The notes under the pieces are model-generated. The model did not search any database. It was not told the origin of the DNA and saw nothing but the letters and a program-made list of their open reading frames with translations. Shown here in pieces: positions 20,779 through 47,492 of a DNA stretch of 64,000 nt (position 1 is the stretch's first letter; each line of letters opens with the position of its first letter). The translations under genes were made by a program, and so were the position numbers. The stretch comes from Candidatus Latescibacterota bacterium. GTDB taxonomy: Bacteria; Latescibacterota; UBA2968; UBA8231. The DNA lies in contig OZ253462.1 in NCBI GenBank assembly GCA_965261395.1, positions 2,944,001 to 3,008,000 of the forward strand, read 5' to 3'.

Positions 20779-20817
20779 GCGTTCATCCCCCTGCGGTCCC
20801 GTCTAGTCGGCAGTGCG

Positions 20818-20993
20818 CCGTGCTTGGTGCCGCTTTGCGCCATACGGTCTCGCGGAAAGGTGGAATCAAAACCTGATCAAACGTTGAAAATCGTCGTAAG
20901 ATACTGTTTTTACAAGAGACTTTAACATCCGAGACATCGGCTTTGCGCCCAAAATCAAAACCCGATCAAACGTTGGCCTTTCACGCCCAAAAC
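20818..20993. repeat. ~180 bp imperfect direct repeat, copy 2
   Basis: Copy of 19139-19327 with an internal deletion. Confidence 0.85.
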
Positions 20994-21003
20994 ATTGGTG
21001 AAT

Positions 21004-21084
21004 CGGTTTGGGGCGGGTCGTCGTTTCCTCGGACAGGCGCGTATCCAAGCCGCCCGCGGGAATCAGGGCCTTCGTAATATGCAC
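21004..21084 (-). pseudogene. N-terminal fragment of a sugar-1-phosphate nucleotidylyltransferase (RfbF/GalU-like)
   Basis: KALIPAGGLDTRLSEETTTRPKP matches the GGLGTRLSEET...PKP signature, then runs into the direct repeat. Confidence 0.7.
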
Positions 21085-21316
21085 TTACTTTTAAATAAAC
21101 AAATCATTGTTTTTTAAGGACATTTGCCTTCGTTGAGCGGCGGGATGCACGTTGCAATAAAATAAAGTTTGCGCCAAAAGTCCAAATCGCCCTGCCGGTA
21201 GCCGAGCGTTTTGTGGATGGCTGCGGCTTGGCACGACAACTCGGATCACACTGCGACCAAGCCGTTATAAAATGCGGAGAAAATCAATTGTCAAACGAAA
21301 GAATGATTTTGCCACC

Positions 21317-24300
21317 CGGCTCATCCCCGCGTGTGCGGGAACATATTGCAGAGAGTCGCGGCGTAACAACTTCACCCGGCTCATCCCCGCGTGTGCGGGG
21401 AACATTTAATAGTTTGCCACATAATGTGGTTAACTAGCGGCTCATCCCCGCGTGTGCGGGGAACATACAATGTGAAATCTACGCTGGGGCACCGCATCCG
21501 GTTCATCCCCGCGTGTGCGGGGAACATCACCATTCGCAGATCGTAGTCGTTCACGCTAACGGTTCATCCCCGCGTGTGCGGGGAACATCAGGTTCATCGG
21601 ATATAGAGCGCCAGCGGCGACGGTTCATCCCCGCGTGTGCGGGGAACATTTGGTAGGCAACCCCCCATCATTGGACCAGGCCGGTTCATCCCCGCGTGTG
21701 CGGGGAACATATGCTGATGCTGGCGAGGGCGAAGGGGTTCATCCCCGCGTGTGCGGGGAACATCTCGACAAGGCCCGCGACCGGTCAGCCAAGACCGGTT
21801 CATCCCCGCGTGTGCGGGGAACATATGGTGGAGGTCATAGTCACCCTCTCCAAGCTCGGTTCATCCCCGCGTGTGCGGGGAACATTTGCAGATGTTGACG
21901 GGTGCATAATGCGTATCCGGTTCATCCCCGCGTGTGCGGGGAACATGATGTAAATTTCCTGTGTCGCGCGCCGTCTGCCGGTTCATCCCCGCGTGTGCGG
22001 GGAACATTTCACGCAGGCGGCCAAAGAAGGCAACGTCCGCGGTTCATCCCCGCGTGTGCGGGGAACATTCCCTGGTCTGCCGAACCGAATCGCTAAAATC
22101 CGGTTCATCCCCGCGTGTGCGGGGAACATATTAACGCTCATAGCATCCAGCCCCACCACGCCGGTTCATCCCCGCGTGTGCGGGGAACATGGGGTCAGAA
22201 TACCCATCAGGATATTTCCTTTCGGTTCATCCCCGCGTGTGCGGGGAACATCGCCCCAAGTGGTGCATCATGCACACCAAGGTCGGTTCATCCCCGCGTG
22301 TGCGGGGAACATTGCTCAATCCAAGTCGAACCCGATCTTTCGAGCGGTTCATCCCCGCGTGTGCGGGGAACATCGGCCTCAGTCCCTCTACAATAACATG
22401 ACCATCGGTTCATCCCCGCGTGTGCGGGGAACATCAACAGCTCGAAGACCTCATCGTCAGACAACTCGGTTCATCCCCGCGTGTGCGGGGAACATTGGTG
22501 GTGGTGGCCCTCCGCCGCCGATGTAAACGGTTCATCCCCGCGTGTGCGGGGAACATAGATTATGTATATATCGGCGCAACATCTACGCCGGTTCATCCCC
22601 GCGTGTGCGGGGAACATACCATGGCAACGCAAAACGTATTTCAGATCATCGGTTCATCCCCGCGTGTGCGGGGAACATCCACTTCGGTTTTTTTGAACGC
22701 GAAGGCTTCCCGGTTCATCCCCGCGTGTGCGGGGAACATCCACTTCGGTTTCTTCGAACGCGAGGGTTTTCCGGTTCATCCCCGCGTGTGCGGGGAACAT
22801 ACGACCTAGGATACAATTACAACTCAGCCGGCCGGTTCATCCCCGCGTGTGCGGGGAACATCAAGTCTCAGCCGAGCCCCATTTCTTCTCAGACGGTTCA
22901 TCCCCGCGTGTGCGGGGAACATAAAAACTCGCCTTTTTTGATCGCGTTGAACGCCGGTTCATCCCCGCGTGTGCGGGGAACATAAGCTCGGCCCCATGAC
23001 GTTGCGGTACTCTAACGGTTCATCCCCGCGTGTGCGGGGAACATCTGGGGCTTGAGCCTATGTCGGGGTCGCTTATCGGTTCATCCCCGCGTGTGCGGGG
23101 AACATTCGCAATGCCTTATTGCTTTGCGCGTCAACGTCGGTTCATCCCCGCGTGTGCGGGGAACATCTCCCTGTCGTCAAGGTGAAACAAGGTGCGACCG
23201 GTTCATCCCCGCGTGTGCGGGGAACATTTCGCGCAAGCCCTTTGCCGCTTCTGCGATCTCGGTTCATCCCCGCGTGTGCGGGGAACATTTCGTCAAAGCC
23301 TTTATGCTCGCCCGCAAAGCCGGTTCATCCCCGCGTGTGCGGGGAACATATGCTTGTAACCTTCTGAATGAGGTTGCAAGGCGGTTCATCCCCGCGTGTG
23401 CGGGGAACATTTCCCTATCGAGCAACAGCAGAGAATCAAAGTCGGTTCATCCCCGCGTGTGCGGGGAACATATCTCCTTCTTGACCGCGCTCGCGTCGAT
23501 GTCCGGTTCATCCCCGCGTGTGCGGGGAACATTTCGCATCTGAGCGCGTCCAGCACAAATTTCCCGGTTCATCCCCGCGTGTGCGGGGAACATTTTCGTC
23601 AAAGCCTTTATGCTCGCGTCGATGTCCGGTTCATCCCCGCGTGTGCGGGGAACATATGCAAGCAACCTGCTGAATGAGGTTGCAAGGCGGTTCATCCCCG
23701 CGTGTGCGGGGAACATCTATTGTATTGATTGTATTGAAACGCGAAACACGGTTCATCCCCGCGTGTGCGGGGAACATTAGGGTCAGTATCCTGCGAAGCG
23801 ATGCAATCCTGGTTCATCCCCGCGTGTGCGGGGAACATAAGCAACTGACGTATTGTATTGACGCGAAACACGGTTCATCCCCGCGTGTGCGGGGAACATT
23901 GTAAAGGAATCGCTCGCCGACTCGCTGCCGACGGTTCATCCCCGCGTGTGCGGGGAACATATCGCCAGTCAATGCAGTCCGGTAGAGTCAAGCGGTTCAT
24001 CCCCGCGTGTGCGGGGAACATACGGCGAAACTGCTCGACACCTATGTCGATAGCGGTTCATCCCCGCGTGTGCGGGGAACATACGCCGGGACAATCCGGC
24101 AAAACGCTTTACCACGGTTCATCCCCGCGTGTGCGGGGAACATATACAGATCAGATCAGATCAGATCAGATCAGCCGGTTCATCCCCGCGTGTGCGGGGA
24201 ACATTTTAAAATAGTGGTGGAAAGTGCTTGACAATGCGGTTCATCCCCGCGTGTGCGGGGAACATAAAAGGCCAGCGGTTAAAATTTAACTATTGACCGG

Positions 24301-25424
24301 TTCATCCCCGCGTGTGCGGGGAACATGTTTAACTCCCCTCACGGGAGGAGCCTATCACCGGTTCATCCCCGCGTGTGCGGGGAACATGCGCGCTCGGGGC
24401 TTTTCTCGATGCGCGTTTTCGGTTCATCCCCGCGTGTGCGGGGAACATAGGTAGGCCGTGTACGGCCCGGTTGCCGATACCGGTTCATCCCCGCGTGTGC
24501 GGGGAACATCGGTTTAACTGCCATTGCTGGCAGCCCATCACCGGTTCATCCCCGCGTGTGCGGGGAACATTGCGATAGGGAGCGCGTTTATTGTGCGTGT
24601 TACGGTTCATCCCCGCGTGTGCGGGGAACATTCTCAATTATTGCTTGTGTTGGTATCGGCTACCGGTTCATCCCCGCGTGTGCGGGGAACATCGGTTTAA
24701 CTCCCGTCGCCGGGAGCCCATCACCGGTTCATCCCCGCGTGTGCGGGGAACATTTCTGCAAAGCCTTTATGCTCGTCCTCAGGGCCGGTTCATCCCCGCG
24801 TGTGCGGGGAACATTGTAAAGGAAACGCCCGCCGGCTCGTCGCCGACGGTTCATCCCCGCGTGTGCGGGGAACATTCCGGTTGGAACAAGGTAGGTTTTT
24901 CCTGCTACGGTTCATCCCCGCGTGTGCGGGGAACATGTGTGGGCTGAACTTTGGATCAGCCCGTGCGGCGGTTCATCCCCGCGTGTGCGGGGAACATCCT
25001 TGTGAGTGTGCTGCGTTTCCTGGGCTGAGCGGTTCATCCCCGCGTGTGCGGGGAACATAATATCGGCCAGCTTGGCCGATACAATGTTCGCGGTTCATCC
25101 CCGCGTGTGCGGGGAACATTGAGCAACTTCGGCAATCAGCAAGGCAAGGGCCGGTTCATCCCCGCGTGTGCGGGGAACATCCTCTATCGTCAAGTATCTC
25201 TGGGTGCTGCGTCGGTTCATCCCCGCGTGTGCGGGGAACATCGGGTGCTAATGGCGTTGAATAGTGCGAGTAGCGGTTCATCCCCGCGTGTGCGGGGAAC
25301 ATCTGGTATTCTTCGTCCAGGTGTTTGCGAGCATCGGTTCATCCCCGCGTGTGCGGGGAACATAATACCCGCACTCACATGAGGTAAATTTCAATCGGTT
25401 CATCCCCGCGTGTGCGGGGAACAT
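21317..25424 (-). CRISPR. type I-E CRISPR array, 68 repeats / 67 spacers
   Basis: 29-bp repeat CGGTTCATCCCCGCGTGTGCGGGGAACAT (+) = ATGTTCCCCGCACACGCGGGGATGAACCG (-), 61-bp period, mostly 32-nt spacers (one 24 nt, one 33 nt). Degenerate CGGCTC repeats at the 21317 end mark the trailer. Confidence 0.99.
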
Positions 25425-25529
25425 ACTTAATCGTAACTGCTTGCTACAGTTTAGGTTATATGCCATGCAAAATAGCTACCGACTATTTGACCCCCGATTC
25501 ACCCACTCCACATATGCCGAGAACATACT
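25425..25529 (-). promoter_or_regulatory. CRISPR leader
   Basis: AT-rich non-coding segment between the cas2 stop and the conserved end of the array. Confidence 0.8.
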
Positions 25530-25808
25530 TCACTCAGGCAAAAAAGATACGAGTCGAAGACCGTCAAAATCCACAGGTATCCGGCGGTTTGTGCCAAAGG
25601 TTTCAAACTCAAACCCCGCGTCATTGGGGGCGGCCCAAGCAATCACAGCATCACCGTCGCCGATGAGCTCGCACACATTGTCGCGGATCATAGCGCGGGT
25701 CTTTGCCGAGTAGTTGCCGATATAGACACCGGCTCGAAGTTCCAGAAGCCAAACCGCGAGCCGGCCCCGCAGGCGCGGCGGCACATTATTAGTCACCACT
25801 ATCATCAT
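25530..25808 (-). CDS. cas2: type I-E Cas2
   Basis: PPRLRGRLAVWLLELRAGVYIG...VDFDGLRLVSF. Confidence 0.97.
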   Translation of the reverse strand: MMIVVTNNVPPRLRGRLAVWLLELRAGVYIGNYSAKTRAMIRDNVCELIGDGDAVIAWAAPNDAGFEFETFGTNRRIPVDFDGLRLVSFLPE

Positions 25809-26752
25809 CCTCGATGGCCCTCATCTCCGCTTGAAGGTGGATCGGCAAAGGCCGGGCCTACCGCATCATCTGGCATTTTCGGCGGCGGCAACTCGCCCGC
25901 TGCGAGCACTTCTCCGATGGTTGGAATCAGTCGCCTGAGCAGCTTGGTTCTGCGGAACGTGTCCCGACACGCCAAGCGCACTTCGCGCACAGGCTCGGCA
26001 GAACGCCCCTTCGCGTGCTGTCCCGCAATGCGAAACGCTGTCGGCACCGCCGTCTCAAATTTGAATAAATCGGCAATGTCGTACACAAAGGAGAGGGGTT
26101 TACCAGTATGCAAGAAGCCGACTGCTGGGGCATATCCAGCCGCGAGCACGGCGGCTTCCGTAATGCCGTAGAGGCAGGCAGTTGCTGCCGAGAGGCAGCG
26201 GTTGGGCACATCGGAGAAGTTCCAATCCGAAGGATCGTAGCTGCGCCTTTTCCACTGTACTCCAAACTGCCGCGCCAAATTCTCATAAAGCGCACGTACA
26301 CGCGCCCCCTCAATTCCGCGAAGCTGTTCGACAGAACGGCGTTGCGGCGCTCGCTCGTCAAATCGGATTTGATACATCCGCCGCACGATCTTCAGCCGAG
26401 CGTCGGGGTCAAGCGCGAGGCGGCACTGCCACAGAAGCCTGTCGGACCGGGCACCTCCCGGCTGACCAGCCGCGTATAGGCGCACCCCGGCTTCACCGAC
26501 CCATATCAGCAAAGTACCGACCCGTGCGGCGAGTGCCACTGCAGCATGACTGACCCGCGCACCAGGTTCGAGCATGATGCAAGCCAACCCGCCAACGGGG
26601 ATGTGCGTCCGCACCCCCTTTACATCTACGAGCACAAAAGCTCCATCGAGTACGTCGAGTTGGCCCTTCTCCACAAAAACGATAGAGGTGCGGTCCTTTA
26701 TGGGGATCGGCTTGGGGGGCGGAGCACCCGGCATTCTGTCAGGGCTAGCCAT
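25805..26752 (-). CDS. cas1: type I-E Cas1
   Basis: LEPGARVSHAA, VGEAGVRLYA, QLRGIEGARVR, GFLHTGKPLSFVYDIAD. Confidence 0.98.
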   Translation of the reverse strand: MASPDRMPGAPPPKPIPIKDRTSIVFVEKGQLDVLDGAFVLVDVKGVRTHIPVGGLACIMLEPGARVSHAAVALAARVGTLLIWVGEAGVRLYAAGQPGGARSDRLLWQCRLALDPDARLKIVRRMYQIRFDERAPQRRSVEQLRGIEGARVRALYENLARQFGVQWKRRSYDPSDWNFSDVPNRCLSAATACLYGITEAAVLAAGYAPAVGFLHTGKPLSFVYDIADLFKFETAVPTAFRIAGQHAKGRSAEPVREVRLACRDTFRRTKLLRRLIPTIGEVLAAGELPPPKMPDDAVGPAFADPPSSGDEGHRG

Positions 26753-26775
26753 CAAGCGATCCTGCGTATAAGCGA

Positions 26776-26865
26776 TGGTTCATCCCCGCATGTGCGGGGA
26801 ACACAGAGGTAGTCATCAGGCGATCCTGCGCATGAGTGGGTCATCCTCGCGTGTGCGGGGAACAT
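26776..26865 (-). CRISPR. mini-array (degenerate repeat-32 nt spacer-degenerate repeat) at the cas6e/cas1 junction
   Basis: Repeats 26776-26804 and 26837-26865; spacer 26805-26836 matches 26741-26772 at 26/32. Confidence 0.9.
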
Positions 26866-27608
26866 CTGCGTATAAGCATCAGGCCGCAGCCAAATGCCTT
26901 GCCGCGCCCGAATCCCTGCCGAAGGCGGGCGAGAAACGAGTTAGGCTCGGTTATGGTCAAAGCACCTTTGAGGTCGAATATGCCCAAAGTGCCGAATTTC
27001 CCACCGCGCCGTGCGAAACGCTCGGCTCGATAGCCTTCGAGCATCAGTGCGTCAAGGCAGAATCCGTATGCTTCGGCCCGCGCCGCTAGCCAGTCGTAGG
27101 CCGCCTTTTTGGCAAACTGCATCCGATACTTGGCGCGGTTGAGGGATTCATCCCCGCGTGTGCGGGGAACATTCTTGAGCAAGTCCATGGCCACATCGCA
27201 GCGTTGCCGTATGGCCGGTTCATTCCCGTGTGTGCGAGAAACTTTCCGATCGACCGTGGCGTTAAGGCGCAGATCGAACGCCAGCCGGTCTCCTGGCGAG
27301 AGTGTCGGCTCGAAGGGCTTCGTCTCGATAGCGAAGAAGGGAGAGTCTTCCAAAGGCTTGGGGCCGAGAAGATAGTACCGCCCGCGCTGGCGGTCGGCCC
27401 GCCAAAGAAACGCGGATTTCGGCGTACCGGCAGTCCGGCTCTGCTCTACCTCAGTACGCACATTTGGCGGGATGACCGTCCAGATCAGCCGGTGATCTAC
27501 CGCGAGGCGGTCAGACGACTTTGATGGCTGAAGGACCTGTAGCAGGGGAGCTATGTCTGCGGCGTCGCGCCGGAGCGTAAGACGCGAAAAGTGGAGTGGC
27601 TCACTCAT
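26841..27608 (-). CDS. cas6e: Cas6e (Cse3/CasE) with repeat-derived insertions
   Basis: HRLIW, LAFDLRLNAT, GFGRGKAFGCGLML Gly-rich loop. Confidence 0.95.
   Translation of the reverse strand: MSEPLHFSRLTLRRDAADIAPLLQVLQPSKSSDRLAVDHRLIWTVIPPNVRTEVEQSRTAGTPKSAFLWRADRQRGRYYLLGPKPLEDSPFFAIETKPFEPTLSPGDRLAFDLRLNATVDRKVSRTHGNEPAIRQRCDVAMDLLKNVPRTRGDESLNRAKYRMQFAKKAAYDWLAARAEAYGFCLDALMLEGYRAERFARRGGKFGTLGIFDLKGALTITEPNSFLARLRQGFGRGKAFGCGLMLIRRCSPHTRG
27144..27244 (-). CRISPR. two CRISPR repeats embedded in frame in the cas6e CDS, 43 nt apart
   Basis: 27144-27172 matches consensus at 27/29; 27216-27244 at 24/29. Confidence 0.85.
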
Positions 27609-28321
27609 TGCGAAGCCTCCTCTTGGTCAGTGGGAACGTATTCGTATTCGCGCCGTTGCCCGAACTGCCAGCTCGTGCGGTCGCCCGGCTCGTCCATCCG
27701 CAGTCGCATCCGCAAGGAAGCATCGAGAGGACCGAGGTCCGCCCGATCCTCCACGGCGATTAGGCCATTCGGCCCATCGCTATGGCGCTTGAACGCATCA
27801 ACGACCGTTTGTGCTTCAATGATCTCCGGCGCGAGTGGGTGGGACAGTGGGCAGGACTTGCGCCCTAAATACAATGTATAAGCTGGCTTCTCAAACCCAG
27901 CTTTGAGGTCCCGCAACGAGTATCGTCCGCCCGATATGGCTCGGTAAGCCGCCTGATAGCGCACATCTGTGCGGTACTCTCGGTGGGTGATACTCGTCGC
28001 AAGGTCCAAGGGATGGGAAAGTGCCTCCGCTCTAGTTCGGGGATGTCCCTTGGCCGAAGGCAGCGACTGGTAAGTGTGAAAATCCGTCACCAACGTCCCG
28101 GCGCACAGGGTGCGAGTAGCGACGCGGAAAGAGGCAGCAAGCGCCCGCTGCCCTTCCGCATCGGCGCGATCAATACCCAGCGCCGCGCCCGCCATCCCCA
28201 AAAGGGCAGATCGCGTTGGACGGTCGGCCGTGCCACGCCGCACATTGCCTGCCTCTTCGCCGAAGCTGGCAAAGGGTGCGGCCAAGGTAATAATTAACCA
28301 TTTCCTCGGTTCACCATTCAT
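27605..28321 (-). CDS. cas5: Cas5e (CasD)
   Basis: LAAPFASFGE...PTRSALLGMAGAALG, DFHT, REY, LYLGRKSCP. Confidence 0.96.
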   Translation of the reverse strand: MNGEPRKWLIITLAAPFASFGEEAGNVRRGTADRPTRSALLGMAGAALGIDRADAEGQRALAASFRVATRTLCAGTLVTDFHTYQSLPSAKGHPRTRAEALSHPLDLATSITHREYRTDVRYQAAYRAISGGRYSLRDLKAGFEKPAYTLYLGRKSCPLSHPLAPEIIEAQTVVDAFKRHSDGPNGLIAVEDRADLGPLDASLRMRLRMDEPGDRTSWQFGQRREYEYVPTDQEEASQ

Positions 28322-28353
28322 TTTAGTCCCTTCGGGAATATATGTGGTTCGTG

Positions 28354-28443
28354 CGGTTCGTCCCCGCGGATACGGGGAACATCCTACGTGTAGTTGGATG
28401 TCGTCGCTTCAATCCGGTTCATCCCCGCAGGTGCGGGGAACGT
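28354..28443 (-). CRISPR. mini-array (repeat-32 nt spacer-repeat) between cas7 and cas5
   Basis: CGGTTCGTCCCCGCGGATACGGGGAACAT (28354-28382), spacer 28383-28414, CGGTTCATCCCCGCAGGTGCGGGGAACGT (28415-28443). Confidence 0.9.
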
Positions 28444-28462
28444 TTTGCCAAATAGCAAATTG

Positions 28463-29521
28463 CTACAGTTCCTCCGCTGCGAAGGCGGCTAGCTCCTCCA
28501 ACATGGCACTATCCTCTTCACCTACATGGAGTTCGCTGGCTTCCCAATCGTCGTCGTAGGTCTTCGCAAAGGCGGTACGCTGCTTCTTGAGTACCTTTAC
28601 GGACTCCCCGAGTTGGTCTTCCGATTTTACCGGCTTGGTGAAGGCACTAGCCAAGCTGCGAGGTTGGCTATCCCCGCGCTCTAACAACATGTATTCGGCG
28701 CGTACGTGATTGGCGAAGCTGTTTTTCTTACCGGAAGGCGATGCGGTCGCCGCAGCGCGTACTAGCGCGGAGAGCGCACGGCCTGCCAGTTCTGTATCGC
28801 TCGCAAGATTTTCCAGCAGCAGGACCCTATTTACGCAGATGTAGAGATAGAAGACGCCAGCGCCGAAACCCGCCTCTCCGATGAAACCCGCGCCCGCATC
28901 CTCTTCTGGGGTCTTCAGATCGTCAACAGCCGTGTAGTAGTCATCTTCAATATCGACTCGGTTGGTGGTAAAGGCATGAGCCACTTGCACGGCGGCATCG
29001 CGGTTGAAGTCGGGGTTGTCAGCCAACATGCGCCCGAACATAGCAATGTCCACGGCACCGTCGGCAGTGCTTAGGACCTGTTTCGCCAGTTCCTTTTCCT
29101 TCGGTAAGGTTTCCCCGCTCAGTGCCTTTTCTGCCAAATCGAATGCAGCAGCGCGTTCCTCCGGCGAGATGAAGGCTAGCTGTTCGGTATAGGCCGGATT
29201 TGGGTCTTTCTCATTCTTTACTTTACCGAACAGAGCAGCGATGGTCCGGGCGATTTCGAGCGCCTTGTCCTCCGAAGCACCCTTTTCTAGCAGATGCTCT
29301 CGCACCTTGTCGCCCATACGCTGCGTGCGCTCGCCTAGCTTTCCCGTTAGGGCGGACCGGAAAGCGTCGTCCGTGCGGATGGCGCGTTTGAGGGCTTGGC
29401 TGGAAATGCGCATCCGCGACACACCGCCGATGAAAGCGGTCTTGGGACGGCCGAGGTCGTCTCGGTTGGGGTTAGACGGTGGATAGGCTGTCAGAACGTG
29501 CATTTGCACAAAGCGGCTCAT
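28463..29521 (-). CDS. cas7: Cas7e (Cse4/CasC)
   Basis: YPPSNPNRDDLGRPK, RISSQALKRAIR, DIAMFGRM, DYYTAVDD, PSGKKNSFA. Confidence 0.97.
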   Translation of the reverse strand: MSRFVQMHVLTAYPPSNPNRDDLGRPKTAFIGGVSRMRISSQALKRAIRTDDAFRSALTGKLGERTQRMGDKVREHLLEKGASEDKALEIARTIAALFGKVKNEKDPNPAYTEQLAFISPEERAAAFDLAEKALSGETLPKEKELAKQVLSTADGAVDIAMFGRMLADNPDFNRDAAVQVAHAFTTNRVDIEDDYYTAVDDLKTPEEDAGAGFIGEAGFGAGVFYLYICVNRVLLLENLASDTELAGRALSALVRAAATASPSGKKNSFANHVRAEYMLLERGDSQPRSLASAFTKPVKSEDQLGESVKVLKKQRTAFAKTYDDDWEASELHVGEEDSAMLEELAAFAAEEL

Positions 29522-30090
29522 AGTTGAGTCTCCTCTTGGGGTTGGGTGTTCTCTGCGGCATCGGTCCGCCGCGTGTGATAGTAATCAAAGGTCCATTTCT
29601 GCCGAGTCTGGTCGTTAAAGAAAAGCACATCGCCGATAAAGCGAGGAACGTCGAATGGCGCATCGCCCAAAATAGCAAGGGTCCGGCGCAGTGCCCGTGC
29701 GAACATGTCCACATCAGTGCCATCCTTGAGCAGGTTGCTGAAGCGCATGGGCGACAGGCGTGGACGGGCGTCGCCTTTGGGGATGGAACCATCCCACGTG
29801 AGGCCCAAGGCGTCAGCGAAGGGGGGGAGATGGGCGGTCCTCTCGGAGGGTTTAACCCGCGCAAGGGCCATAGCCAGCACGGCGAGGCGCTGCTCAAGCG
29901 CGTGGCCGGCGGTAGCCTTTTCATGCACACTGGCGATCAACCTGTGGGTTTCTGGCTCTAAGAGGGCGTCGAATACGCTTTCGCAGCGCTTCAGCCGCGC
30001 CCGTGCACCCCGGTCTCCGTGGTCCGCGTGAAGCGATACCCACCAGTTCACCACTGCATTGACGGTAGGGTTATTTCGGTTGAGCTGCAT
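29518..30090 (-). CDS. cas11: Cas11e (Cse2/CasB)
   Basis: DRGARARLKRC, LSPMRFSNLL, WTFDYY; position between cas8e and cas7. Confidence 0.92.
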   Translation of the reverse strand: MQLNRNNPTVNAVVNWWVSLHADHGDRGARARLKRCESVFDALLEPETHRLIASVHEKATAGHALEQRLAVLAMALARVKPSERTAHLPPFADALGLTWDGSIPKGDARPRLSPMRFSNLLKDGTDVDMFARALRRTLAILGDAPFDVPRFIGDVLFFNDQTRQKWTFDYYHTRRTDAAENTQPQEETQL

Positions 30091-31748
30091 TAAGCGGTCT
30101 CCTTTTTGGTTTTGGATTTTTTCTCTGGCAAAGGAAGTTCGAGCTTGTCGTAAAGCGACTTGCTCTGCTTGGTCCAGCCAGCAAAGGTTGCGTTCAAGAT
30201 GCCGTAGGCATTGACGATTGTCTTGGCCTTCTCGGCGTCTTGCAAGGGCACGGGTGCCAGTCGGTCAAAAGTCGCAAGGGCTGCGCGGCGCATGATACCT
30301 AGCCAGTGCCGTGCGAGAGCGGTCTGGTCGAAGCCCCCATCTTCGGGCATTTCTTGGAGCAGATCGTCGAGCAGGTGGTGGAATTGGTCCTCGGTTGCGT
30401 CGAAGAAATCAGCCCGCGCTTGGTCGAGAATCCCCTTATCGTTTGAGGCATTCTTCTGGCCGCTGAAAAGTGCCTTTTTCAAGGCTGTTAACAACTGAGA
30501 AACCGCTTGATCGGCGGCTTCGGAGAAATGTCGGGCGAGATCGTCGAGAGCCTGTTGTTGATCGGATGTATTCGCCAGATGCAAAGGCTCCTCGGCGATG
30601 AGATAGGCGATTGCTTCCATGTTGTTCATGGCCCAACCGCCAACGCGGATGCGAGCATCGGCCGCTTGTTTATTCTGGCTAAGGGAATGGGAGCGATTAT
30701 TCTTGGAGAGCTTGATATTTGTGGGCTGTTCAGCCAGCTTGCCATCCTTGCTCCCTACCGTGACGGCAACCCAGTCTCGATAGCCAAAGCGTCCTGATTT
30801 TGGCTTGGCCGAATACGGCTCCCCTGCCTCTTTCAGGCGGCGGTAGGGCGTCAGCGGATGCTGCCATAGCCCATAATTTGTGCCGTAGGGCCTCTGGATA
30901 AATCCGGTGACCAGCGGTTCTTTTCTGCCGGTCATGGAGCAGATGCCCGGCTCGCTGGAAAAGACTAGCTGGATGCGGCGCGGCATACCGAAATACGCCT
31001 GCAAGGGGTGGGCGTCTGCTAGAGATACAGTACGACTTTTTTCCGATGTGAGTGTCGGGGCCATCCAAGGCAGGGCCTTGGGCAACTCATCTATTGGGAG
31101 TCGTTTATCGCAAGGCACCACATTGGCGAAAATTTTGTGCCACAAAGGCACGGGCGTTGCATCGTCATTAGTCGCCGGAACGACCAGTGCCGTCAAAGGC
31201 CCGCCTCCACGCATGGAAGTGCGGTTCCCGGCACCGCCGGCCGGCGCGTAGGCTTGCAGGGTGTACAGCGTCATGGCCGCAGCCGGTAGGCCAAGGGCAG
31301 CATAGCGGTTGCGGTGAGTCAATAGGTCCGAGTTTTTGCGCTGGCCGTTTTGCCCTGGTGTGTCGATGAGCAGTAGTTCAATAGGAGTTTCGTTGCCTTG
31401 CAGGGGCTCATAGTCCTGTAGGAAGCGCGGCCCTTCGCCGTTGAGATAGAAGGCAGAAACAAGAGGGGCGAGCTTTTCGGCGAGCGCGTCTCTATCCGGC
31501 GGATTGGTCCAAAAAGGACGCCAGTCGTCCTCTTCGCGGATATCGAAGGCCAACGAAATCACGCCGATGCAGAACTCGAAGCTCGCCATGTTGAAATCCG
31601 GGCGCGGCCAGTTAAACTCGACCGGGTAGTCTTCATCCAAGCCGTTGCTTTTGGGTCCAGCCACTAGTTCGGGAAAGGCAAGCCATCTCTGTGCTCCAGA
31701 TCGCATGACGACCGGGAGAAAGGGATCACTGAGCAGATTAAAAGTCAT
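30090..31748 (-). CDS. cas8e: Cas8e (Cse1/CasA)
   Basis: FNLLSDPFLPV, PRFLQD, APAGGAGNRTSMRGGGPLT, MPRRIQL, HPLTPY; AAGGAG RBS. Confidence 0.96.
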   Translation of the reverse strand: MTFNLLSDPFLPVVMRSGAQRWLAFPELVAGPKSNGLDEDYPVEFNWPRPDFNMASFEFCIGVISLAFDIREEDDWRPFWTNPPDRDALAEKLAPLVSAFYLNGEGPRFLQDYEPLQGNETPIELLLIDTPGQNGQRKNSDLLTHRNRYAALGLPAAAMTLYTLQAYAPAGGAGNRTSMRGGGPLTALVVPATNDDATPVPLWHKIFANVVPCDKRLPIDELPKALPWMAPTLTSEKSRTVSLADAHPLQAYFGMPRRIQLVFSSEPGICSMTGRKEPLVTGFIQRPYGTNYGLWQHPLTPYRRLKEAGEPYSAKPKSGRFGYRDWVAVTVGSKDGKLAEQPTNIKLSKNNRSHSLSQNKQAADARIRVGGWAMNNMEAIAYLIAEEPLHLANTSDQQQALDDLARHFSEAADQAVSQLLTALKKALFSGQKNASNDKGILDQARADFFDATEDQFHHLLDDLLQEMPEDGGFDQTALARHWLGIMRRAALATFDRLAPVPLQDAEKAKTIVNAYGILNATFAGWTKQSKSLYDKLELPLPEKKSKTKKETA

Positions 31749-31770
31749 TGATATCTCCTTAAAATATATA

Positions 31771-31821
31771 ACTAACCAACAGCTTACTACATACTCTAAA
31801 GAGGCAATCGTACCTTGTCAA
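31771..31821 (-). promoter_or_regulatory. sigma70-type promoter of cas8e with adjacent ATG PAM and crRNA-like RNA target
   Basis: TTGACA (31821-31816), 17 bp, TAGAGT (31798-31793), then ATG (31792-31790) and TAGTAAGCTGTTGGTTAGT (31789-31771). Confidence 0.8.
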
Positions 31822-31842
31822 GGGCAAGTTGCGGTCCATCAT

Positions 31843-31919
31843 TAATTAATCCCCGTGTGTACGGGGAACACGTTAGCCGACAGCATACTACGGCTCATTC
31901 CCGCGTCTGCGGGACAACA
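31843..31919 (-). ncRNA. CreR/CreA-like crRNA-like regulatory RNA (degenerate repeats with a 19-nt spacer)
   Basis: Repeats 31891-31919 (overlaps the cas3 stop) and 31843-31871 with compensated stems; spacer TAGTATGCTGTCGGCTAAC matches the cas8e promoter region. Confidence 0.85.
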
Positions 31920-34633
31920 AATCTAAAGCCCAGTCGGGCACAGTACATAAAATAACCGTCATCCTTCGCCCCTTCCAATCGCACCCTACTGCCCCCTTCT
32001 ACCACGGCTATCAATATTTCGCGTTCCCACTCCGGCCAGTCGCTTTTGGCCTGCTCTTGAAGGGCTTGGTCCTCGGGCGATGGCGAGGCTCCAGCGAGAA
32101 AATTCTCCCGTACCCGGATTTCAGACAAGGCCCAAGCCCTGTTGGGATCGTCGTCGGGTACCGTGCACCAAGGAATAAGACGATCTTCCTCTATACGAGC
32201 CAAACGCAACATAACGGTCGGCTCTCCCAGCCGAGTGCCAATATCTTCTGTGCCGCTCAATTCCGTCGGCAGGCTACCGTAGCCCTCTTCTAGGCTGACG
32301 ACGTTAAATCGGCCCAGCGAGCGACTGCCCATTTCCTTCCCTTCGTCTTCGATTTGCTTTTCTTCAAGGGCTGGCGGCACATCCCCATTGGCGTAAACGT
32401 ATTCAATCAACGGGCGAAAACTTTCCGGCGTGTCAATACATCCAGCGTCGGACAGGGCCTTCGCGCTGCGCCACATCACGCCGGCATTTTGATAGACAAA
32501 CGCTGCCTTGCCGAGTGCCGGCTCAAGCCAGTTTTGGTCTTCTACCTGATCCGGGTCCGGCGAGACTATGAGGGTATGCGGACTCTCTACAGGGCGGCTT
32601 TCCGGTGGACGCTTGTCCAAATGACGCCACATCCGACCAGCGCGCTGGATGATAAGATCCACTGGCGCGAGGTCCGAAATGACGAGATCAAAGTCGAGGT
32701 CGAGGCTTTGCTCAACCACCTGCGTGGCTACAAGGATATGGCCGGCCCGGCCTGTCGCTTTGGCGTCGCGCCCGAATCGGCGCAATACATCATTTTCTAT
32801 GACCTGCCTATCGCTTTGGGCAAACCGAGCGTGGAAGAGGTGAATGTGATCTGGGTTGTCCATTTGGCCCACAAGCGATTCATATACAGCGATGGCCTCA
32901 TCTACTGCGTTGCAGATGACCAGCACGGCCGCTTCCTCTTTTGCTGCGGAGAGAGCTCGTGTCTCGGCGGTTATTCGGTCGGGCAGGCGTTCTACCGTTA
33001 CGCTACGACGCAACGCAGAATCGAATCCCGACTCGCATTCCTGTACTCCGCCGATTGTGGCCGAGGTGAGCAGCGGGTACGCCTCACTGCATAGTTGATC
33101 GCTCAGATCTTCTGGGTCGCGCAAGCCGAGACCCTTGGCAAACGCCTCTGCCATATCGCGACGTTGCTGCAGAGATAAGGTCGCAGAGAGCACTATGGCG
33201 GAGCCGCCGTTTTGGGCGTGAAGTTCCAGCAGCGCGGAAAGTTCCTCGCCCATATAGGCATCAAAGCAATGGGCTTCATCAACTATGAGGATGCGGCCAG
33301 CCAGCCCGTATTGACGCAAGGTTAGATGTCTTTTAGGGAGGATCGAGAGAAAGGCTTGGTCAATGGTCCCCGCTCCGACATCTGCGTAAAAGGCTTTTCT
33401 TCGGTCGTCTGCAATCCATTGGGCGCAAAAGGCGGATGCGGTTTCATCCTCGCTGCCATTGGCCATGTCAGTGGAGTTGACGATGGCGCGGAACGCCTCG
33501 GACAGGTTCGACCTGCCGTGTGCCAAGACGAGTGAGAGGTCTTCGGAGGCTGAAGTTTCAAACAGCTTCTGGTAAGTCACCGCCAGCCGCTCGTACATAG
33601 CGTTGGCCGTTGCCATAGTCGGCAGCGCAAAGTACAGACCCTCGCCTTTGCCCGCCGCCATCATCCGGGCTGCGAGCATGATGGCCGCTTCTGTTTTACC
33701 GGCCCCTGTGGTGTCTTCTAAGATGAACAACTGCGCTCCGTCCTTGAGCGGTGCTTCTTCCGCCAGTTTCTGCATGGGTCTTGGATGAGGGGCAGCTTGT
33801 GGAGCAAAACTAGCATAACTCGGACGGGACTCCGGGGACTGGGCCAGTAACCCCTTTCCCACTAGGGCTTTTTCGGCCTGAGTAAGCGCCCACTCCCAAT
33901 AGTCCTCCAGCCTCGTATCGACCGATTCAAAAGAGAAGTAATCGGAGTCTGAACCGACCCAGTCGGCCAGTGTGACAAGCCCTGACAAGCGCCAAGACCA
34001 CTGCGCCGTCTGCTTCTGCTTTTCGAGAGACGATAGAGGCAGAGGCTCTATCAGGTTCCGGAGCATACAAAAGGCAGTATGAGCCGCGTCCACGCATTCC
34101 TCACCAAGCTGCTGGTCGCGCCGAGCTTTGCCTGGATCGGCATTTACTTCATCCTGTCCCTCGGGTGGTCGTCCATGGTGCCCCGCAATGGCAGCAATGA
34201 TCGGTGCTATATCATAAGGGATGCTAGGGAATAAGCTGGCGAACTCTTGGGATATTGGCTCGGCCCTGAGAAGGATAGCCGTGTTGCGCCAATGACCACG
34301 GTCGGCGATTTCTCTCTTCGGGCCAAGGACCTGCTCTGGCCACAATTGGGGTACCTTCGCCTGAAAGCTGCGTGAAAATTTGCCAAGATCGTGTATGCCA
34401 GCCAGAAAAGCAGTGATCTTGGATAAGCACTCTGGACTCGCTTTCAACAAAGCGGCCTCGCGCTCAAGACGGGCAGGATTCAATTGCTGCCATCGCAGGG
34501 CGACAGCAGCGACATCCATCAAATGATGTAAGACAGGCTTATAGCTACGTGTATCATTGAATACAGTTTCCGAGGAATTGCCAGCACTACGAAGCGTCTT
34601 GCCCCAAAATTCCAAGAGGCGGGCGGCTTCCAT
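31895..34633 (-). CDS. cas3: Cas3 HD nuclease-helicase
   Basis: HLMDVAAV, HDLGK, HHG, DWVGS, TTGAGKTE, DEAH, LSAT, ATQVVEQSLDLDFD, QRAGR; likely start MEAARLL 1 nt after the upstream stop. Confidence 0.97.
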   Translation of the reverse strand: MEAARLLEFWGKTLRSAGNSSETVFNDTRSYKPVLHHLMDVAAVALRWQQLNPARLEREAALLKASPECLSKITAFLAGIHDLGKFSRSFQAKVPQLWPEQVLGPKREIADRGHWRNTAILLRAEPISQEFASLFPSIPYDIAPIIAAIAGHHGRPPEGQDEVNADPGKARRDQQLGEECVDAAHTAFCMLRNLIEPLPLSSLEKQKQTAQWSWRLSGLVTLADWVGSDSDYFSFESVDTRLEDYWEWALTQAEKALVGKGLLAQSPESRPSYASFAPQAAPHPRPMQKLAEEAPLKDGAQLFILEDTTGAGKTEAAIMLAARMMAAGKGEGLYFALPTMATANAMYERLAVTYQKLFETSASEDLSLVLAHGRSNLSEAFRAIVNSTDMANGSEDETASAFCAQWIADDRRKAFYADVGAGTIDQAFLSILPKRHLTLRQYGLAGRILIVDEAHCFDAYMGEELSALLELHAQNGGSAIVLSATLSLQQRRDMAEAFAKGLGLRDPEDLSDQLCSEAYPLLTSATIGGVQECESGFDSALRRSVTVERLPDRITAETRALSAAKEEAAVLVICNAVDEAIAVYESLVGQMDNPDHIHLFHARFAQSDRQVIENDVLRRFGRDAKATGRAGHILVATQVVEQSLDLDFDLVISDLAPVDLIIQRAGRMWRHLDKRPPESRPVESPHTLIVSPDPDQVEDQNWLEPALGKAAFVYQNAGVMWRSAKALSDAGCIDTPESFRPLIEYVYANGDVPPALEEKQIEDEGKEMGSRSLGRFNVVSLEEGYGSLPTELSGTEDIGTRLGEPTVMLRLARIEEDRLIPWCTVPDDDPNRAWALSEIRVRENFLAGASPSPEDQALQEQAKSDWPEWEREILIAVVEGGSRVRLEGAKDDGYFMYCARLGFRFVVPQTRE

Positions 34634-34634
34634 C

Positions 34635-35402
34635 TCAGCGGCCCATCCACCCGCCATCGACGATTGCGATGGTCCCATGGACGTAGTCGGCTGCTCGCGA
34701 CGACAGCCACACCACCGCGCCTTTTAAGTCGTCCGGCGTGCCCCACCGGCCCGCTGGAATCCTCACCAGTAGTTGCTCGTTGCGCACGGGGTCGTCGCGC
34801 AGGGCCTGATTGTTGTCGGTGGCGATATAGCCGGGGGCAATGGCATTGACGTTGACCCCGCGACCGGCCCATTCGTTGGCCAGCGCCATCGTCAACTGCC
34901 CGATCCCGCCCTTGGCCGCGGCATAGCCCGGCACTGTGATCCCGCCTTGGAAGGTCAGCACCGAAGCGGTAAAGACGATCTTGCCCCGGCCGCGGGAGAG
35001 CATCTGCTTGCCGAATTCCCGCGCCAGCACGAACTGCGCGTTTAAGTTGACCTCGATGACGTGATCCCAGTCTTCGTCTCCATGTTCCTCAGCCGGGGCG
35101 CGCCGAATGGTACCGGCATTGTTGATGAGGATGTCGATTGGGCCGACCTCGGTGTTGACCTGCTCGACGAAGGCGCGGACCGCTGCCCGGTCGCTGAAAT
35201 CGCAAGCGTATCCTTTGAAGCGCTTGCCGCGCTTGGCAATGTCTTTGCCGACCTCGGAGTCTACTTCCAGCGAGGCGCTGACGCCGACGATATCTGCGCC
35301 CGCCTCGGCCAATGCTTGCGCGAACCCGCGTCCGATGCCTCGACGGCATCCGGTGACCAGCGCCGTTTGGCCGTCGAGCTTAAAGAGATCCAAAATCCCC
35401 AT
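34635..35402 (-). CDS. SDR oxidoreductase (2-dehydro-3-deoxy-D-gluconate 5-dehydrogenase KduD-like)
   Basis: TGCRRGIG, NNAGTIRR, FQGGITVPGYAAAK, DGGWMGR. Confidence 0.85.
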   Translation of the reverse strand: MGILDLFKLDGQTALVTGCRRGIGRGFAQALAEAGADIVGVSASLEVDSEVGKDIAKRGKRFKGYACDFSDRAAVRAFVEQVNTEVGPIDILINNAGTIRRAPAEEHGDEDWDHVIEVNLNAQFVLAREFGKQMLSRGRGKIVFTASVLTFQGGITVPGYAAAKGGIGQLTMALANEWAGRGVNVNAIAPGYIATDNNQALRDDPVRNEQLLVRIPAGRWGTPDDLKGAVVWLSSRAADYVHGTIAIVDGGWMGR

Positions 35403-35403
35403 G

Positions 35404-35778
35404 CTATTCTCCTTGGTTCTGTCCTTGAAGAACGGTCAATGCATCCCACGTCGCCGGAAATCCGCCGAAAGCGCTCATCTGCAACATGACCTCCTCAATC
35501 TCCGTCCTTGTGGCTCCACAACCAAGGGCTCGGTCGATGTGAACAGCAAGCTGTTCCGGCCTGCCGAGAACCGTCAAGGCCGCGATCGTACACAGCAGAC
35601 GGGTCTTGATGTCCAGCCCGTCCCGTCCGTACAGGTCATGCATCACGTGCTCCATCACGAGTCGCTCGAACTCGGGATGAAGTGTGCGCATCTTCTTGGC
35701 AGCGGCCTCTGCAGCGGCCTCTCCGAGCATCGTCGAGAGAACTCTGCGCCCTGCTTCGTAGCGTTGACTTTCAGTCAT
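35404..35778 (-). CDS. carboxymuconolactone decarboxylase family protein
   Basis: RDGLDIKTRLLCTIAAL...H...GATRTEIEEV...GFPA. Confidence 0.85.
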   Translation of the reverse strand: MTESQRYEAGRRVLSTMLGEAAAEAAAKKMRTLHPEFERLVMEHVMHDLYGRDGLDIKTRLLCTIAALTVLGRPEQLAVHIDRALGCGATRTEIEEVMLQMSAFGGFPATWDALTVLQGQNQGE

Positions 35779-36805
35779 ACATCCTCCCCCCTTGGGTGTC
35801 GATTAAAATTTTGACCGCGTCGGTGCCCGCAGTCAGCCGGGCAAAGGCGTCGGGCAGTGCGTCTAGGGGAAGGTGCTCGGTAATCAGCTCGTTGAGCGGC
35901 AGCGCGCCGCTGGCCGCTAGCTCGATGGCGCGGTCGTAGTCTTCGGGTTCGTACACGCGCACGCCGCACATTTTTAACTCGCGCCAGAAGAACTGAAAGA
36001 GATCGACTTTAGGCGCGTCAGTGAAGATCGCCACTACCACAATCCGCCCTCGGACCTTGGCGAGTTTAGTCATCACCTCGGCTCCGGCCGGCGAGCCAGA
36101 GACCTCGAAGACTGCGTCGGCCCCGCCGCCTCCGGTCCAAGCTTCGATGTGGGCGACCAAGTCCTCCTCCAGTGGGTGGACGGTTTCCAGCCCCAGCGCA
36201 TGCGCTGCCTTCAGCCGATAGGCATTGACCTCGGCCACCCGCACCTCGGCTCCCGCGTGCTGCGCCACCAGCGCATTGAGCAGGCCGATCGGGCCGCCGC
36301 CGATTACCACCACTCTCTCGCCCGGTGCCACCCCGCCCAAGCGCACGTCGTGGCAGGCGACTGCCAGCGGCTCGACTAGGGCACCCAGTGTCAGGGACAT
36401 GTCGTCCGGCAGGCGATGCAGTGTATGGGCCGGCACCGTCCACGACCCCTGAAAGGCCCCCGGACTGTCGATGCCGATGAAGTTTAGGTTCTGGCAGATA
36501 TGGCCATTGCCGGCGTTGCAGGCCGGGCACGCGCCGCAAGCCTCTAAGGGACGCACTACGACCGGATCGCCCACGGCCCAGCCTTCGACATCGGCCCCGA
36601 CTTCCGCGATCCGCCCCGACATCTCGTGCCCAATGACTTGGGGCATGTCGATCCGGCGGTCCTGATGGCCCAGGTAAATGTGAATATCCGTGCCGCACAC
36701 CCCGCAATAGGCCACTTCGATTCGCACCTGACCCGCGCTAGGGGATTGCACTCGACACTCGCCGATTTCGACCGTGCGGTCGCCGCAGTAGTAGGCCGCC
36801 TTCAT
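35771..36805 (-). CDS. Zn-dependent sugar/sugar-acid dehydrogenase
   Basis: GVCGTD, GHEMSG, CGACPAC...C, GGGPIG. Confidence 0.92.
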   Translation of the reverse strand: MKAAYYCGDRTVEIGECRVQSPSAGQVRIEVAYCGVCGTDIHIYLGHQDRRIDMPQVIGHEMSGRIAEVGADVEGWAVGDPVVVRPLEACGACPACNAGNGHICQNLNFIGIDSPGAFQGSWTVPAHTLHRLPDDMSLTLGALVEPLAVACHDVRLGGVAPGERVVVIGGGPIGLLNALVAQHAGAEVRVAEVNAYRLKAAHALGLETVHPLEEDLVAHIEAWTGGGGADAVFEVSGSPAGAEVMTKLAKVRGRIVVVAIFTDAPKVDLFQFFWRELKMCGVRVYEPEDYDRAIELAASGALPLNELITEHLPLDALPDAFARLTAGTDAVKILIDTQGGRMYD

Positions 36806-46580: not shown

Positions 46581-47492
46581 ATGTACAGAATCATCTTCGT
46601 TTCGCTTGCAGCGTTGTTGGCTTGCACCGATCCAGAAGGCCCACAAGGCCCTGTAGGTCCCGTAGGCCCCCAAGGCGAACAAGGCCCGCAGGGCGAACAA
46701 GGCGAACAGGGCGAACAGGGCGAACAAGGGCCACGAGGCCCGCAAGGTGAACAGGGTGAACAAGGCGAACAAGGCGAACAAGGCGAACAAGGGCCACGAG
46801 GCCCGCAAGGTGAACAGGGTGAACAAGGCGAACAAGGCGAACAAGGGCCACAAGGGTCACGAGGTCCGCAAGGTGAACAGGGCGAACAAGGCCCGCAAGG
46901 TCCCGCAGGCCCGCAAGAAGCTATAGGAACAGATGTCTTTAGTCTCTTTACGTTCTTTAGGGAGGACTTCAGCAATACAGATCCACTGGGGGATTGGACC
47001 AAACGAGGTACTGGAACTTGGCGAGTACAAGGCGGGAGACTAATTGGACTGGGTAGTGATAACCGTTATTTAACGAGTCTGACCGCAGACCCCGACTTTA
47101 AAGGACCACTCTACGTCACAGTCACGACCCAATGGCTTAGTGGTGTTAAGTACTCTATGTACGGTATCCGGTTTTATTCTGAGAGTAGGGATTTCTACGG
47201 ATTTAGTATAAGTGCCAATGGGAGTTTTGTATTAAGTCGATGGGATGACGGAGGCGACCCCATATCACTGGTTGATTGGACTTATAGCTCATCCATCAAT
47301 CAAGAGGGAACCAATGAGCTAAGTGTTTTTATTGAAGAAAGCTGGATAGAAGCATACATCAACGGAATTCTCGTCGCTGGGGTCTTTAACAACGCCTACA
47401 CCAAAGGAAGCGTAGGTGTCCTAATAGGAGGAGACCAAACAGTGGCCTTCGACGATCTGACCGTAGGGGCGACCATTCCTTTGTCAGACTAG
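46581..47492 (+). CDS. collagen-like lipoprotein with C-terminal beta-sandwich (DUF1080/concanavalin-like)
   Basis: LLAC lipobox, ~31 Gly-X-Y triplets (46638-46916), AGGAG RBS, lower GC. Confidence 0.85.

Follow-up and report, generated by a model that had tools for sequence, protein, structure and literature searches.

A degenerate mini-CRISPR array located between cas3 and cas8e of a CRISPR-Cas system belonging to type I-E in Candidatus Latescibacterota is very probably a functional autoregulatory guide of the CreR (cr-like RNA) type. Its 19-nt spacer-like segment matches a PAM-flanked site that abuts the predicted promoter of cas8e. The class of element is already known, and the instance described here is in an uncultured bacterial lineage.

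On its minus strand the window, i.e., the whole 64-kb stretch of DNA that was analysed, carries a type I-E CRISPR-Cas locus that is complete, as identified with NCBIfam. The genes are as follows.

34678..31895, minus strand: cas3, a 927-aa open reading frame with the NCBIfam Cas3 core and HD domains and the C-terminus ...GFRFVVPQTRE*
31748..30090, minus strand: cas8e (NCBIfam)
30090..29518, minus strand: cse2 (NCBIfam)
29521..28463, minus strand: cas7 (NCBIfam)
28321..27605, minus strand: cas5 (NCBIfam)
27608..26841, minus strand: cas6e (NCBIfam)
26755..25805, minus strand: cas1 (NCBIfam)
25808..25530, minus strand: cas2 (NCBIfam)

The distance between cas3 and cas8e is 146 nt. Downstream of cas2 comes a leader and then the array, in which ~68 repeats alternate with spacers of 32 nt (25418..21326). 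A search of Rfam at gathering thresholds with the region 20000..36000 gave no match, the array included. The nearest Cas8e relatives in the genome collection are 75-90% identical and come from metagenome-assembled genomes, eight of them labelled Candidatus Latescibacterota and one Gemmatimonadota. Cas8e relatives at 92-94% identity exist, and the comparison at the DNA level covered the relatives in the genome collection, the nearest of which are those at 75-90%. Nineteen Cas8e relatives were aligned, and eighty loci were fetched, which are referred to by L numbers.

The mini-array consists of two degenerate repeats (psiR1 and psiR2) that enclose the spacer-like segment (psiS).

31919..31891, minus strand: psiR1, first degenerate repeat, 21/29 to the array repeat, with 6/6 stem pairs and a predicted hairpin
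31890..31872, minus strand: psiS, 19-nt spacer-like guide segment, from a reading of the sequence and a script
31871..31843, minus strand: psiR2, second degenerate repeat, 22/29 to the array repeat, with 6/6 stem pairs and a predicted hairpin
31898..31851, minus strand: predicted mature CreR RNA of 48 nt, deduced from the repeat register on the assumption of a canonical I-E Cas6e cut

In comparison with the array repeat, the stem of psiR1 is kept by a paired change at the stem base and that of psiR2 by a compensatory change in an inner pair, both being C-G to U-A. The last 8 nt of psiR1, ATGAGCCG, correspond to the predicted crRNA 5′ handle, which is retained. The handle differs from the array repeat at one position, and L008 and L023 have this same variant as the ordinary end of their repeats. 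In psiR2 the hairpin is retained and the 3′ 8 nt have decayed to ATTAATTA. The two repeats are thus asymmetric, with the handle kept in psiR1 and the hairpin in psiR2. Cas6e cleaves at the 3′ base of each repeat hairpin. Cleavage at these two positions would yield an RNA composed of an 8-nt handle, the 19-nt guide and a 21-nt 3′ hairpin, i.e., 48 nt. RNA folding of the mini-array predicts both hairpins (-32 kcal/mol, z = -2.2). In the fold of minimum energy, some of the handle is paired with the guide, and this pairing could compete with loading.

The cas3 stop codon TGA (31897..31895) falls within the psiR1 handle. No sigma-70-like promoter for the mini-array was predicted anywhere in 31850..35500 of the minus strand, and transcription of the mini-array would therefore rest on read-through from cas3. 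A terminator scan detected no terminator at the decayed 3′ end of psiR2. The possibility that psiR2 ends in a U-rich terminator was also considered and rejected, as psiR2 tails are A/T-rich and often carry a PAM, and are without U-tracts.

The sequences between the mini-array and cas8e contain the following features.

31821..31793, minus strand: predicted promoter of cas8e (Cascade operon), TTGACA-17-TAGAGT, from a promoter scan, 10/12 to the consensus; −35 TTGACA at 31821..31816, a 17-nt spacer and −10 TAGAGT at 31798..31793
31792..31790, minus strand: PAM ATG on the non-target strand, directly 3′ of the −10 hexamer, from the sequence
31789..31771, minus strand: target (protospacer-like site), which pairs at positions 1-5, 7-11, 13-14 and 16-17
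31760..31755, minus strand: ribosome-binding site AAGGAG of cas8e, from the sequence and invariant in the alignment

Alignment of psiS with the target at 31789..31771 shows identity at 14/19 positions, the mismatches being at 6, 12, 15, 18 and 19. With positions 6, 12 and 18 set aside the match is 14/16, with a perfect seed, and it ends at position 17. A sequence-only reading of the same DNA had proposed this match of 31890-31872 to 31789-31771 with the same five mismatches, and also an ATG in front of the target directly after a TTGACA-17-TAGAGT promoter. Both were reproduced, the former by rereading the sequence and with a script, the latter from the sequence and the promoter scan. The promoter is the only promoter-like site on the minus strand in 31000..32600, it begins 21 nt after psiR2, and the target abuts its −10 hexamer; it should be noted that it was called only by an E. 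coli-type consensus and that the −10 TAGAGT is modest. Judged from the −10 box only, the target would cover the expected transcription start. Between the target and the start codon of cas8e are 22 nt that hold the ribosome-binding site and nothing else, and thus there is no coupled toxin gene of the kind that distinguishes CreA from CreR.

ATG is a working PAM in E. coli type I-E, and it is taken as such here by analogy. A derivation of the PAM from spacers, in which 2057 spacers from the window and the fetched loci were compared with the analysed DNA set, gave two matches, both at chance level. Position 15 is a conserved C-A mismatch. This mismatch, and the presence of ATG rather than AAG as PAM, may each weaken binding. 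A second CreR target in the vicinity of cas3 (34500..35500) was not found at 12/15 or better; the best match there is 11/15 and has ACG at the PAM position.

The match between guide and target is far above chance. When the two strands of the window are searched with psiS, the promoter site is the best match other than psiS itself, with 14/16 informative positions. The runner-up is a single site at 12/16, and there are no other matches of at least 13/16 in the window. The combination of PAM and seed (AWG, positions 1-5 and 7-8) occurs once in the window against an expectation of 0.04. When psiS was shuffled, none of 3000 shuffled sequences reached 14/15 in the 760 nt upstream of cas8e; the maximum was 13/15, seen five times among the 3000.

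The close clade comprises ten loci, i.e., the window, L001-L008 and L016. The mini-array and its target are common to seven of these (window, L002-L006 and L016), and the PAM is ATG in all seven loci that keep the guide. The predicted 48-nt RNA is identical to that of the window in L002 and L003 (48/48) and differs at one position in L004, L005 and L016 (47/48), while third codon positions of cas8e are 80% (L002), 81% (L003), 78% (L004), 83% (L005) and 75% (L016) identical to the window. In the more diverged L006 the RNA is 41/48 and the third codon positions are 67%. The guide is thus under strong purifying selection.

The changes that do occur also show a pattern. psiS is identical in L002, L003, L005 and L016 and has a single change, at position 6, in L004; position 6 varies freely within the close clade, in guide and target alike. 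At position 9, guide and target are T/T in most loci and C/C in L006, and the T/C of L004 would give a U-G wobble, intermediate between the two. Position 12 in L006 is A/A. The TTGACA element is invariant across six aligned loci, and L006 displays TTGACA-17-TATTAT at the promoter position. At a greater distance, L031 (Cas8e 60% identical) has a diverged 33-nt guide of which the first 17 nt match its own site 17/17, and this site begins directly after a TTGACA-17-TTTAAA element, 39 nt before cas8e. The aligned sequences thus show conservation together with co-variation, guide and target changing together in the relatives. Pairing is lost in three of the ten close-clade loci, L001, L007 and L008, and the element is therefore dispensable. 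The best remaining matches are 9/15 in L001 and 11/15 in L008, and the TTGACA element is also lost in L007 and L008.

Some of the related loci display arrangements of their own. L006 (7764..7901) has a less decayed regulatory mini-array with three repeats, in which the 19-nt guide comes first and the second spacer is ordinary-looking, 32 nt long and without a local match (10/15). The third repeat is followed by TTGACA-17-TATTAT and then by the ATG-flanked target. This three-repeat version may represent an earlier evolutionary state. L001 and L016 are two contigs of one metagenome-assembled genome, so that the bin has two I-E loci. The guide/target pair is intact in L016; in L001 the pair is decayed and the promoter degenerate.

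A wider set of 79 sources, consisting of the window and 78 loci (L028 and L029, without upstream sequence, were left out), was scanned for pairs of repeat-like sequences that lie in the 700 nt upstream of cas8e and are separated by 14-45 nt. At least one repeat pair is present in 33 of the 79 sources, with 56 pairs in total. In 26 of the 79 loci the spacer matches a downstream site on the same strand at 13/15 or better, and all 26 sites are flanked by a PAM (AAG in 16, ATG in eight and AAA in two). The other 30 pairs score mostly 9-12; one reaches 13 and is an array spacer that matches the opposite strand. Most of these 30 are ordinary array spacers from arrays upstream of cas8e (L030, L065 and L077). 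The 26 guides measure 32-34 nt (n=13), 26 nt (n=3), 21 nt (n=3) and 19 nt (n=7). Complementarity stops sharply at position 17-18, and mismatches past 18 are as frequent as in unrelated sequence. In many of the alphaproteobacterial loci of this set the target is at the −35 or upstream of it, whereas in the window it abuts the −10.

An unbiased rescoring used the first 17 positions with none excluded and a threshold of 13/17. It retained 30 pairs, 27 of the regulatory type and three array spacers on the opposite strand. Mismatches in the retained pairs affect positions 6 and 12 in 43/60 instances, and the other positions from 1 to 17 in 36/450 (Fisher p = 6e-27). The mismatch pattern at positions 6 and 12 is a signature of Cascade pairing. 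Free variation at every sixth position, a stop at 17-18 and a PAM of the subtype are together what selection for Cascade binding without a full R-loop should be expected to leave in these sequences. The proposal of the sequence-only reading, a CreR-like guide at the cas8e promoter, is thus supported by the anatomy of the mini-array, the PAM, the ~17-nt match, the purifying selection, the co-variation and the mismatch pattern, and the element has all the features by which the CreR family is recognised in sequences.

Two further observations concern the origin of the targets. In 11 of the 26 pairs (L020, L030, L041, L043, L046, L048, L049, L054, L056, L075 and L079) the start of the target falls within the decayed 3′ end of psiR2 or follows it directly. 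The end of psiR2 supplies the PAM in these loci, AAG in ten and AAA in L030. The layout resembles a repeat-spacer-repeat-spacer copy, with a TTGAC motif 3′ of the target in several, and it suggests that guides can arise by local spacer duplication with conversion of the repeat end to a PAM. In addition, a core resembling GCCGTAGGC is common to the targets of L004, L006, L030 and L031, which are distant loci (in L031 it reads GCCGTAAGGC), although its register to the PAM differs. The shared core could mean that the promoter/guide pair descended in common with the I-E locus, or that an operator-like inverted repeat is conserved.

Repeat-like sequences are also found inside the operon. Intra-operon repeats are present in 4 of 76 loci scanned, and the window has three such pairs in addition to the mini-array described above, which makes them the more unusual feature of this genome. 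One is a mini-array between cas7 and cas5 (28443..28354, minus strand), with repeats of 26/29 and 25/29 and a 32-nt spacer at 28414..28383. It is kept in L001, L002 and L003 with 1-3 spacer changes and is absent from the other close relatives. No seed-anchored match of at least 13/15 to this spacer was detected in the window or in L001-L003. The best ungapped similarity is to the same site at the 3′ end of cas7 in all four loci, ~110 nt upstream, at 20-21/32. In L001-L003 this site has AAG and a 5-nt seed match; the similarity is weak. The cas7 3′ end was therefore rejected as a target of the cas7-cas5 mini-array, since a weak 20-21/32 similarity without a seed-anchored match of at least 13/15 is all that was found. 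This mini-array could serve for processing, with cas7 being uncoupled from cas5 as a result.

The second pair lies within the cas6e open reading frame (27244..27144, minus strand) and consists of two in-frame repeat-like sequences, 24/29 and 27/29, that are 43 nt apart. The second of these forms a perfect hairpin, and the pair encodes VSRTHGNEP and NVPRTRGDES. A decayed version is found in L006, and other relatives have different, shorter loops. From its sequence, the cas6e mRNA would carry its own recognition hairpin, and Cas6e may thus limit itself.

The third pair is at the cas6e-cas1 junction (26865..26741, minus strand), where the window has a 104-nt insertion relative to nine of nine relatives compared. 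The insertion consists of a repeat, a 32-nt spacer, a repeat, 3 nt and an 11-nt duplication. It is found in the window only, replaces the last residues of Cas6e and separates cas6e from cas1. Its spacer matches the start region of cas1 just downstream at 26/32, or at 25/27 when every sixth position is left out, and it resembles the junction allele of other relatives, in which ATG precedes the site. The spacer looks like one taken from a related cas locus that landed beside the homologous site. Its mismatches to the neighbouring copy are at positions 3, 6, 18, 24, 28 and 30 (hypergeometric estimate ~0.002). A Cascade periodicity was rejected as the explanation for these, on the grounds that the site is codon-aligned, so that multiples of 3 are third codon positions, and that the spacer resembles the allele of other relatives.

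Elsewhere in the window, 46664..46917 is a tandem array with 9/18/27-nt periodicity; its units, CAAGGCGAA among them, would encode collagen-like Gly-X-Y triplets. A tandem-repeat finder also located 3.7 copies of a 126-nt unit at 58622..59087, with 97% identity. The length of this unit suggests protein repeats of 42 residues.

The hairpins at the cas3 end could be mainly RNA processing or 3′-end signals, whereby Cas6e cleavage separates or stabilises the cas3 message, uncoupling it from the Cascade operon, and the similarity between guide and target is secondary. The overlap of psiR1 with the cas3 stop codon, the lack of a predicted separate promoter for the mini-array, and the three more repeat pairs in the operon, for which processing is the simplest reading, all agree with such a role. 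However it leaves unexplained an invariant 19-nt segment that matches a PAM-flanked promoter site, and it likewise does not account for guide/target co-variation and the 6/12 mismatch periodicity in 26 loci. As the main function, processing is therefore improbable; as a role it is compatible with the CreR reading and not exclusive of it. A functionless, decaying remnant of a CRISPR array, with a promoter similarity derived from local duplication, would be in keeping with the degenerate repeats, with the three close relatives that lack pairing, and with the less decayed three-repeat version in L006. Decay does not fit an RNA that is conserved at 47-48/48 where third codon positions of cas8e are at 75-83%, nor stem pairing that is maintained by compensatory changes, nor mismatches that are confined to non-pairing positions across the family. 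Moreover duplication would not put a PAM beside the copy in 26 of 26 cases, and a remnant of this kind is very unlikely.

The guide might instead target its own locus for low-level interference or primed adaptation, and not for repression. It has a functional-type PAM and a perfect seed, and in the available parts of the literature shortened spacers are reported to prime in E. coli. But the spacer has only 19 nt, of which ~17 are paired, and shortened St-Cascade complexes do not lock R-loops according to the same literature; the long conservation of the target beside an intact system also argues against damage. Self-targeting is thus considered extremely unlikely. An antitoxin of the CreA type, which represses a small toxin gene (creT) and makes the cell addicted to Cascade, has the same architecture as CreR, and toxin-antitoxin genes are enriched near mini-arrays, as far as the available portions of the sources describe them. 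A toxin RNA gene of the CreTA kind would be located directly 3′ of the repressed promoter, and there is no space for one there, as the 22 nt between target and cas8e start already include the ribosome-binding site. Neither an open reading frame nor spare sequence is available there on the minus strand, and the promoter drives cas8e directly. An antitoxin role is hardly credible here.

Under the CreR reading, transcription, processing, Cascade binding, repression and sensing are proposed by analogy. Most likely the psiR1-psiS-psiR2 unit would form the 3′ end of the cas3 transcript, and cuts by Cas6e at the two hairpins would give an RNA of ~48 nt for loading into Cascade. Release of the guide from the cas3 transcript 3′ end is a best guess. 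The guide is in the sense of the cas8e mRNA and would thus pair with the template strand, over ~17 of its 19 nt, at the ATG-flanked site on the cas8e promoter. A transcription start ~7 nt past the −10 would fall near target position 4, so that bound Cascade would occlude the −10/+1 region. RNA polymerase would be blocked, and less cas8e, cse2, cas7, cas5 and cas6e would be transcribed.

The guide is short and only partly complementary, which should mean that the R-loop cannot lock and that Cas3 is not licensed to cut, the outcome being repression without self-destruction. Repression that depends on Cascade and proceeds without Cas3 cleavage is what experiments in Salmonella and E. coli and the limits on R-loop locking would lead one to expect. 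In the parts of the published work that were available, a 5-nt seed together with AAG already suffices for binding by E. coli Cascade, interference needs extensive pairing, and maximal affinity is attained with a PAM-proximal match of 18 bp or less. Locking of St-Cascade needs a 28-bp R-loop, and complexes in which the spacer was cut back by 6, 12 or 18 nt fail to lock. E. coli crRNAs need a spacer of more than 20 nt for interference, and shortened ones assemble fewer Cas7 subunits. E. coli spacers of 14 nt are still able to trigger primed adaptation, and a short guide is therefore not automatically harmless. Thus repression without cleavage is the expected outcome, and some residual priming is possible. 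CreR would also compete with ~67 array crRNAs for Cas proteins. Through this competition, excess crRNA or Cascade inactivated by an anti-CRISPR should relieve repression, which would amount to negative feedback.

A more extended reading combines three proposals, namely a guide that is the processed 3′ end of the cas3 mRNA, a small Cascade that only represses, and a multi-node network of repeats over the operon. As a combination it is rather doubtful. psiR1 is written into the last codons of cas3, and for this reason the guide is perhaps not an independent gene; if so, Cas6e cleavage would tie the transcript of the nuclease (cas3) to repression of the Cascade operon. If the second proposal is true, a small Cascade that lacks two Cas7 would be assembled on the 19-nt guide, dedicated to repression only. 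If the third is true, the mini-array and the three intra-operon repeat pairs would give Cas6e and Cascade control over their own operon's stoichiometry, on the RNA as well as the DNA level.

The CreR reading in itself provides a clean, evolutionarily supported case in which a degenerate crRNA brings about Cas autorepression; the phylum concerned is known from metagenome-assembled genomes only. The 26 guide/target pairs offer a sequence-only read-out of the pairing that selection allows in a regulatory Cascade guide. In annotation, such mini-arrays should not be confused with decayed arrays or self-targeting spacers. For engineering, a short guide with a target that abuts the −10 is a compact natural design for Cascade-based repression. 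Specialists will expect elements of the CreR kind in I-E loci, and the present one does not open a new question. The sequence-only reading had called the class known, and this is borne out by the Salmonella CreR and by a survey of mini-arrays in I-E loci, as described in the available parts of these sources. The CreR study of Liu et al. has reportedly also appeared in a journal version in Cell Host & Microbe. In the mini-array literature that was searched, without a focus on lineage, no description of the present lineage was met, and supplementary survey tables may list related loci.

The comparisons that follow refer to the available parts of the respective sources. CreA of the CreTA modules (type I-B of Haloarcula hispanica and others) is similar in that a degenerate crRNA with partial complementarity makes Cascade a transcriptional repressor. 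However CreA represses a toxin RNA gene, and the regulated gene here is cas8e, with no room for a toxin. Autorepression of cas9 by tracr-L (Workman et al. 2021) likewise involves a non-canonical guide with a partial match, by which an effector represses its own promoter, but tracr-L belongs to class 2, with a single effector, is derived from the tracrRNA and is without a mini-array. Viral Cracr RNAs have a short psiS of 17-24 nt and guide Cas effectors to cas or creT promoters, and short guides were shown, for I-F regulatory RNAs and viral mimics, to give complexes with fewer backbone subunits (bioRxiv 10.1101/2024.10.29.618823). Cracr RNAs are phage- or plasmid-borne mimics that silence host immunity, whereas the element described here is chromosomal and lies inside its own cas locus. 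A blastn search with 31765..31925 as a possible viral mimic gave no match in 50,697 phage records.

Mini-arrays were found in 19% of 3741 I-E loci and are concentrated beside cas3, and their predicted targets are cas8 promoters with canonical PAMs, mismatches at sixth positions being noted (Shmakov et al., PMC10120712). The Latescibacterota mini-array shares with these the two repeats, the location between cas3 and cas8 and a PAM-flanked target at the cas8 promoter (PMC10120712). In the E. coli example of Shmakov et al. the mini-array is reported to be transcribed opposite to cas3, and its target is upstream of Pcas at the H-NS site (PMC10120712); here, in contrast, the mini-array runs in the direction of cas3 and cas8e, and its target lies downstream of the −10.

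In Salmonella enterica a degenerate mini-CRISPR of the I-E system makes CreR (Liu et al., bioRxiv 10.1101/2023.03.10.532045). An uninterrupted stretch of 15 nt is common to CreR and a site flanked by AAG that lies ~140 bp upstream of casA. Together with E. coli Cascade, CreR gave ~8.6-fold repression of a casA-promoter reporter, and this repression was relieved by over-production of crRNA and by AcrIE8 (10.1101/2023.03.10.532045). The asymmetry of the repeats, with the 5′ handle in psiR1 and the 3′ hairpin in psiR2, was also described for CreR (10.1101/2023.03.10.532045). Both elements are degenerate mini-CRISPRs between cas3 and casA/cas8e without a toxin partner, and both have a partial PAM-proximal match to the casA promoter region, ~17 nt here versus 15 in Salmonella. 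They differ in the PAM, ATG here and AAG in Salmonella, and in the location of the target, which here touches the −10, 22 nt before the start codon, and in Salmonella is ~140 bp upstream of casA. Also unlike the Salmonella element, the present one has a 19-nt guide and a psiR1 that extends over the cas3 stop codon, and it is known from sequence alone, in an uncultured Candidatus Latescibacterota.
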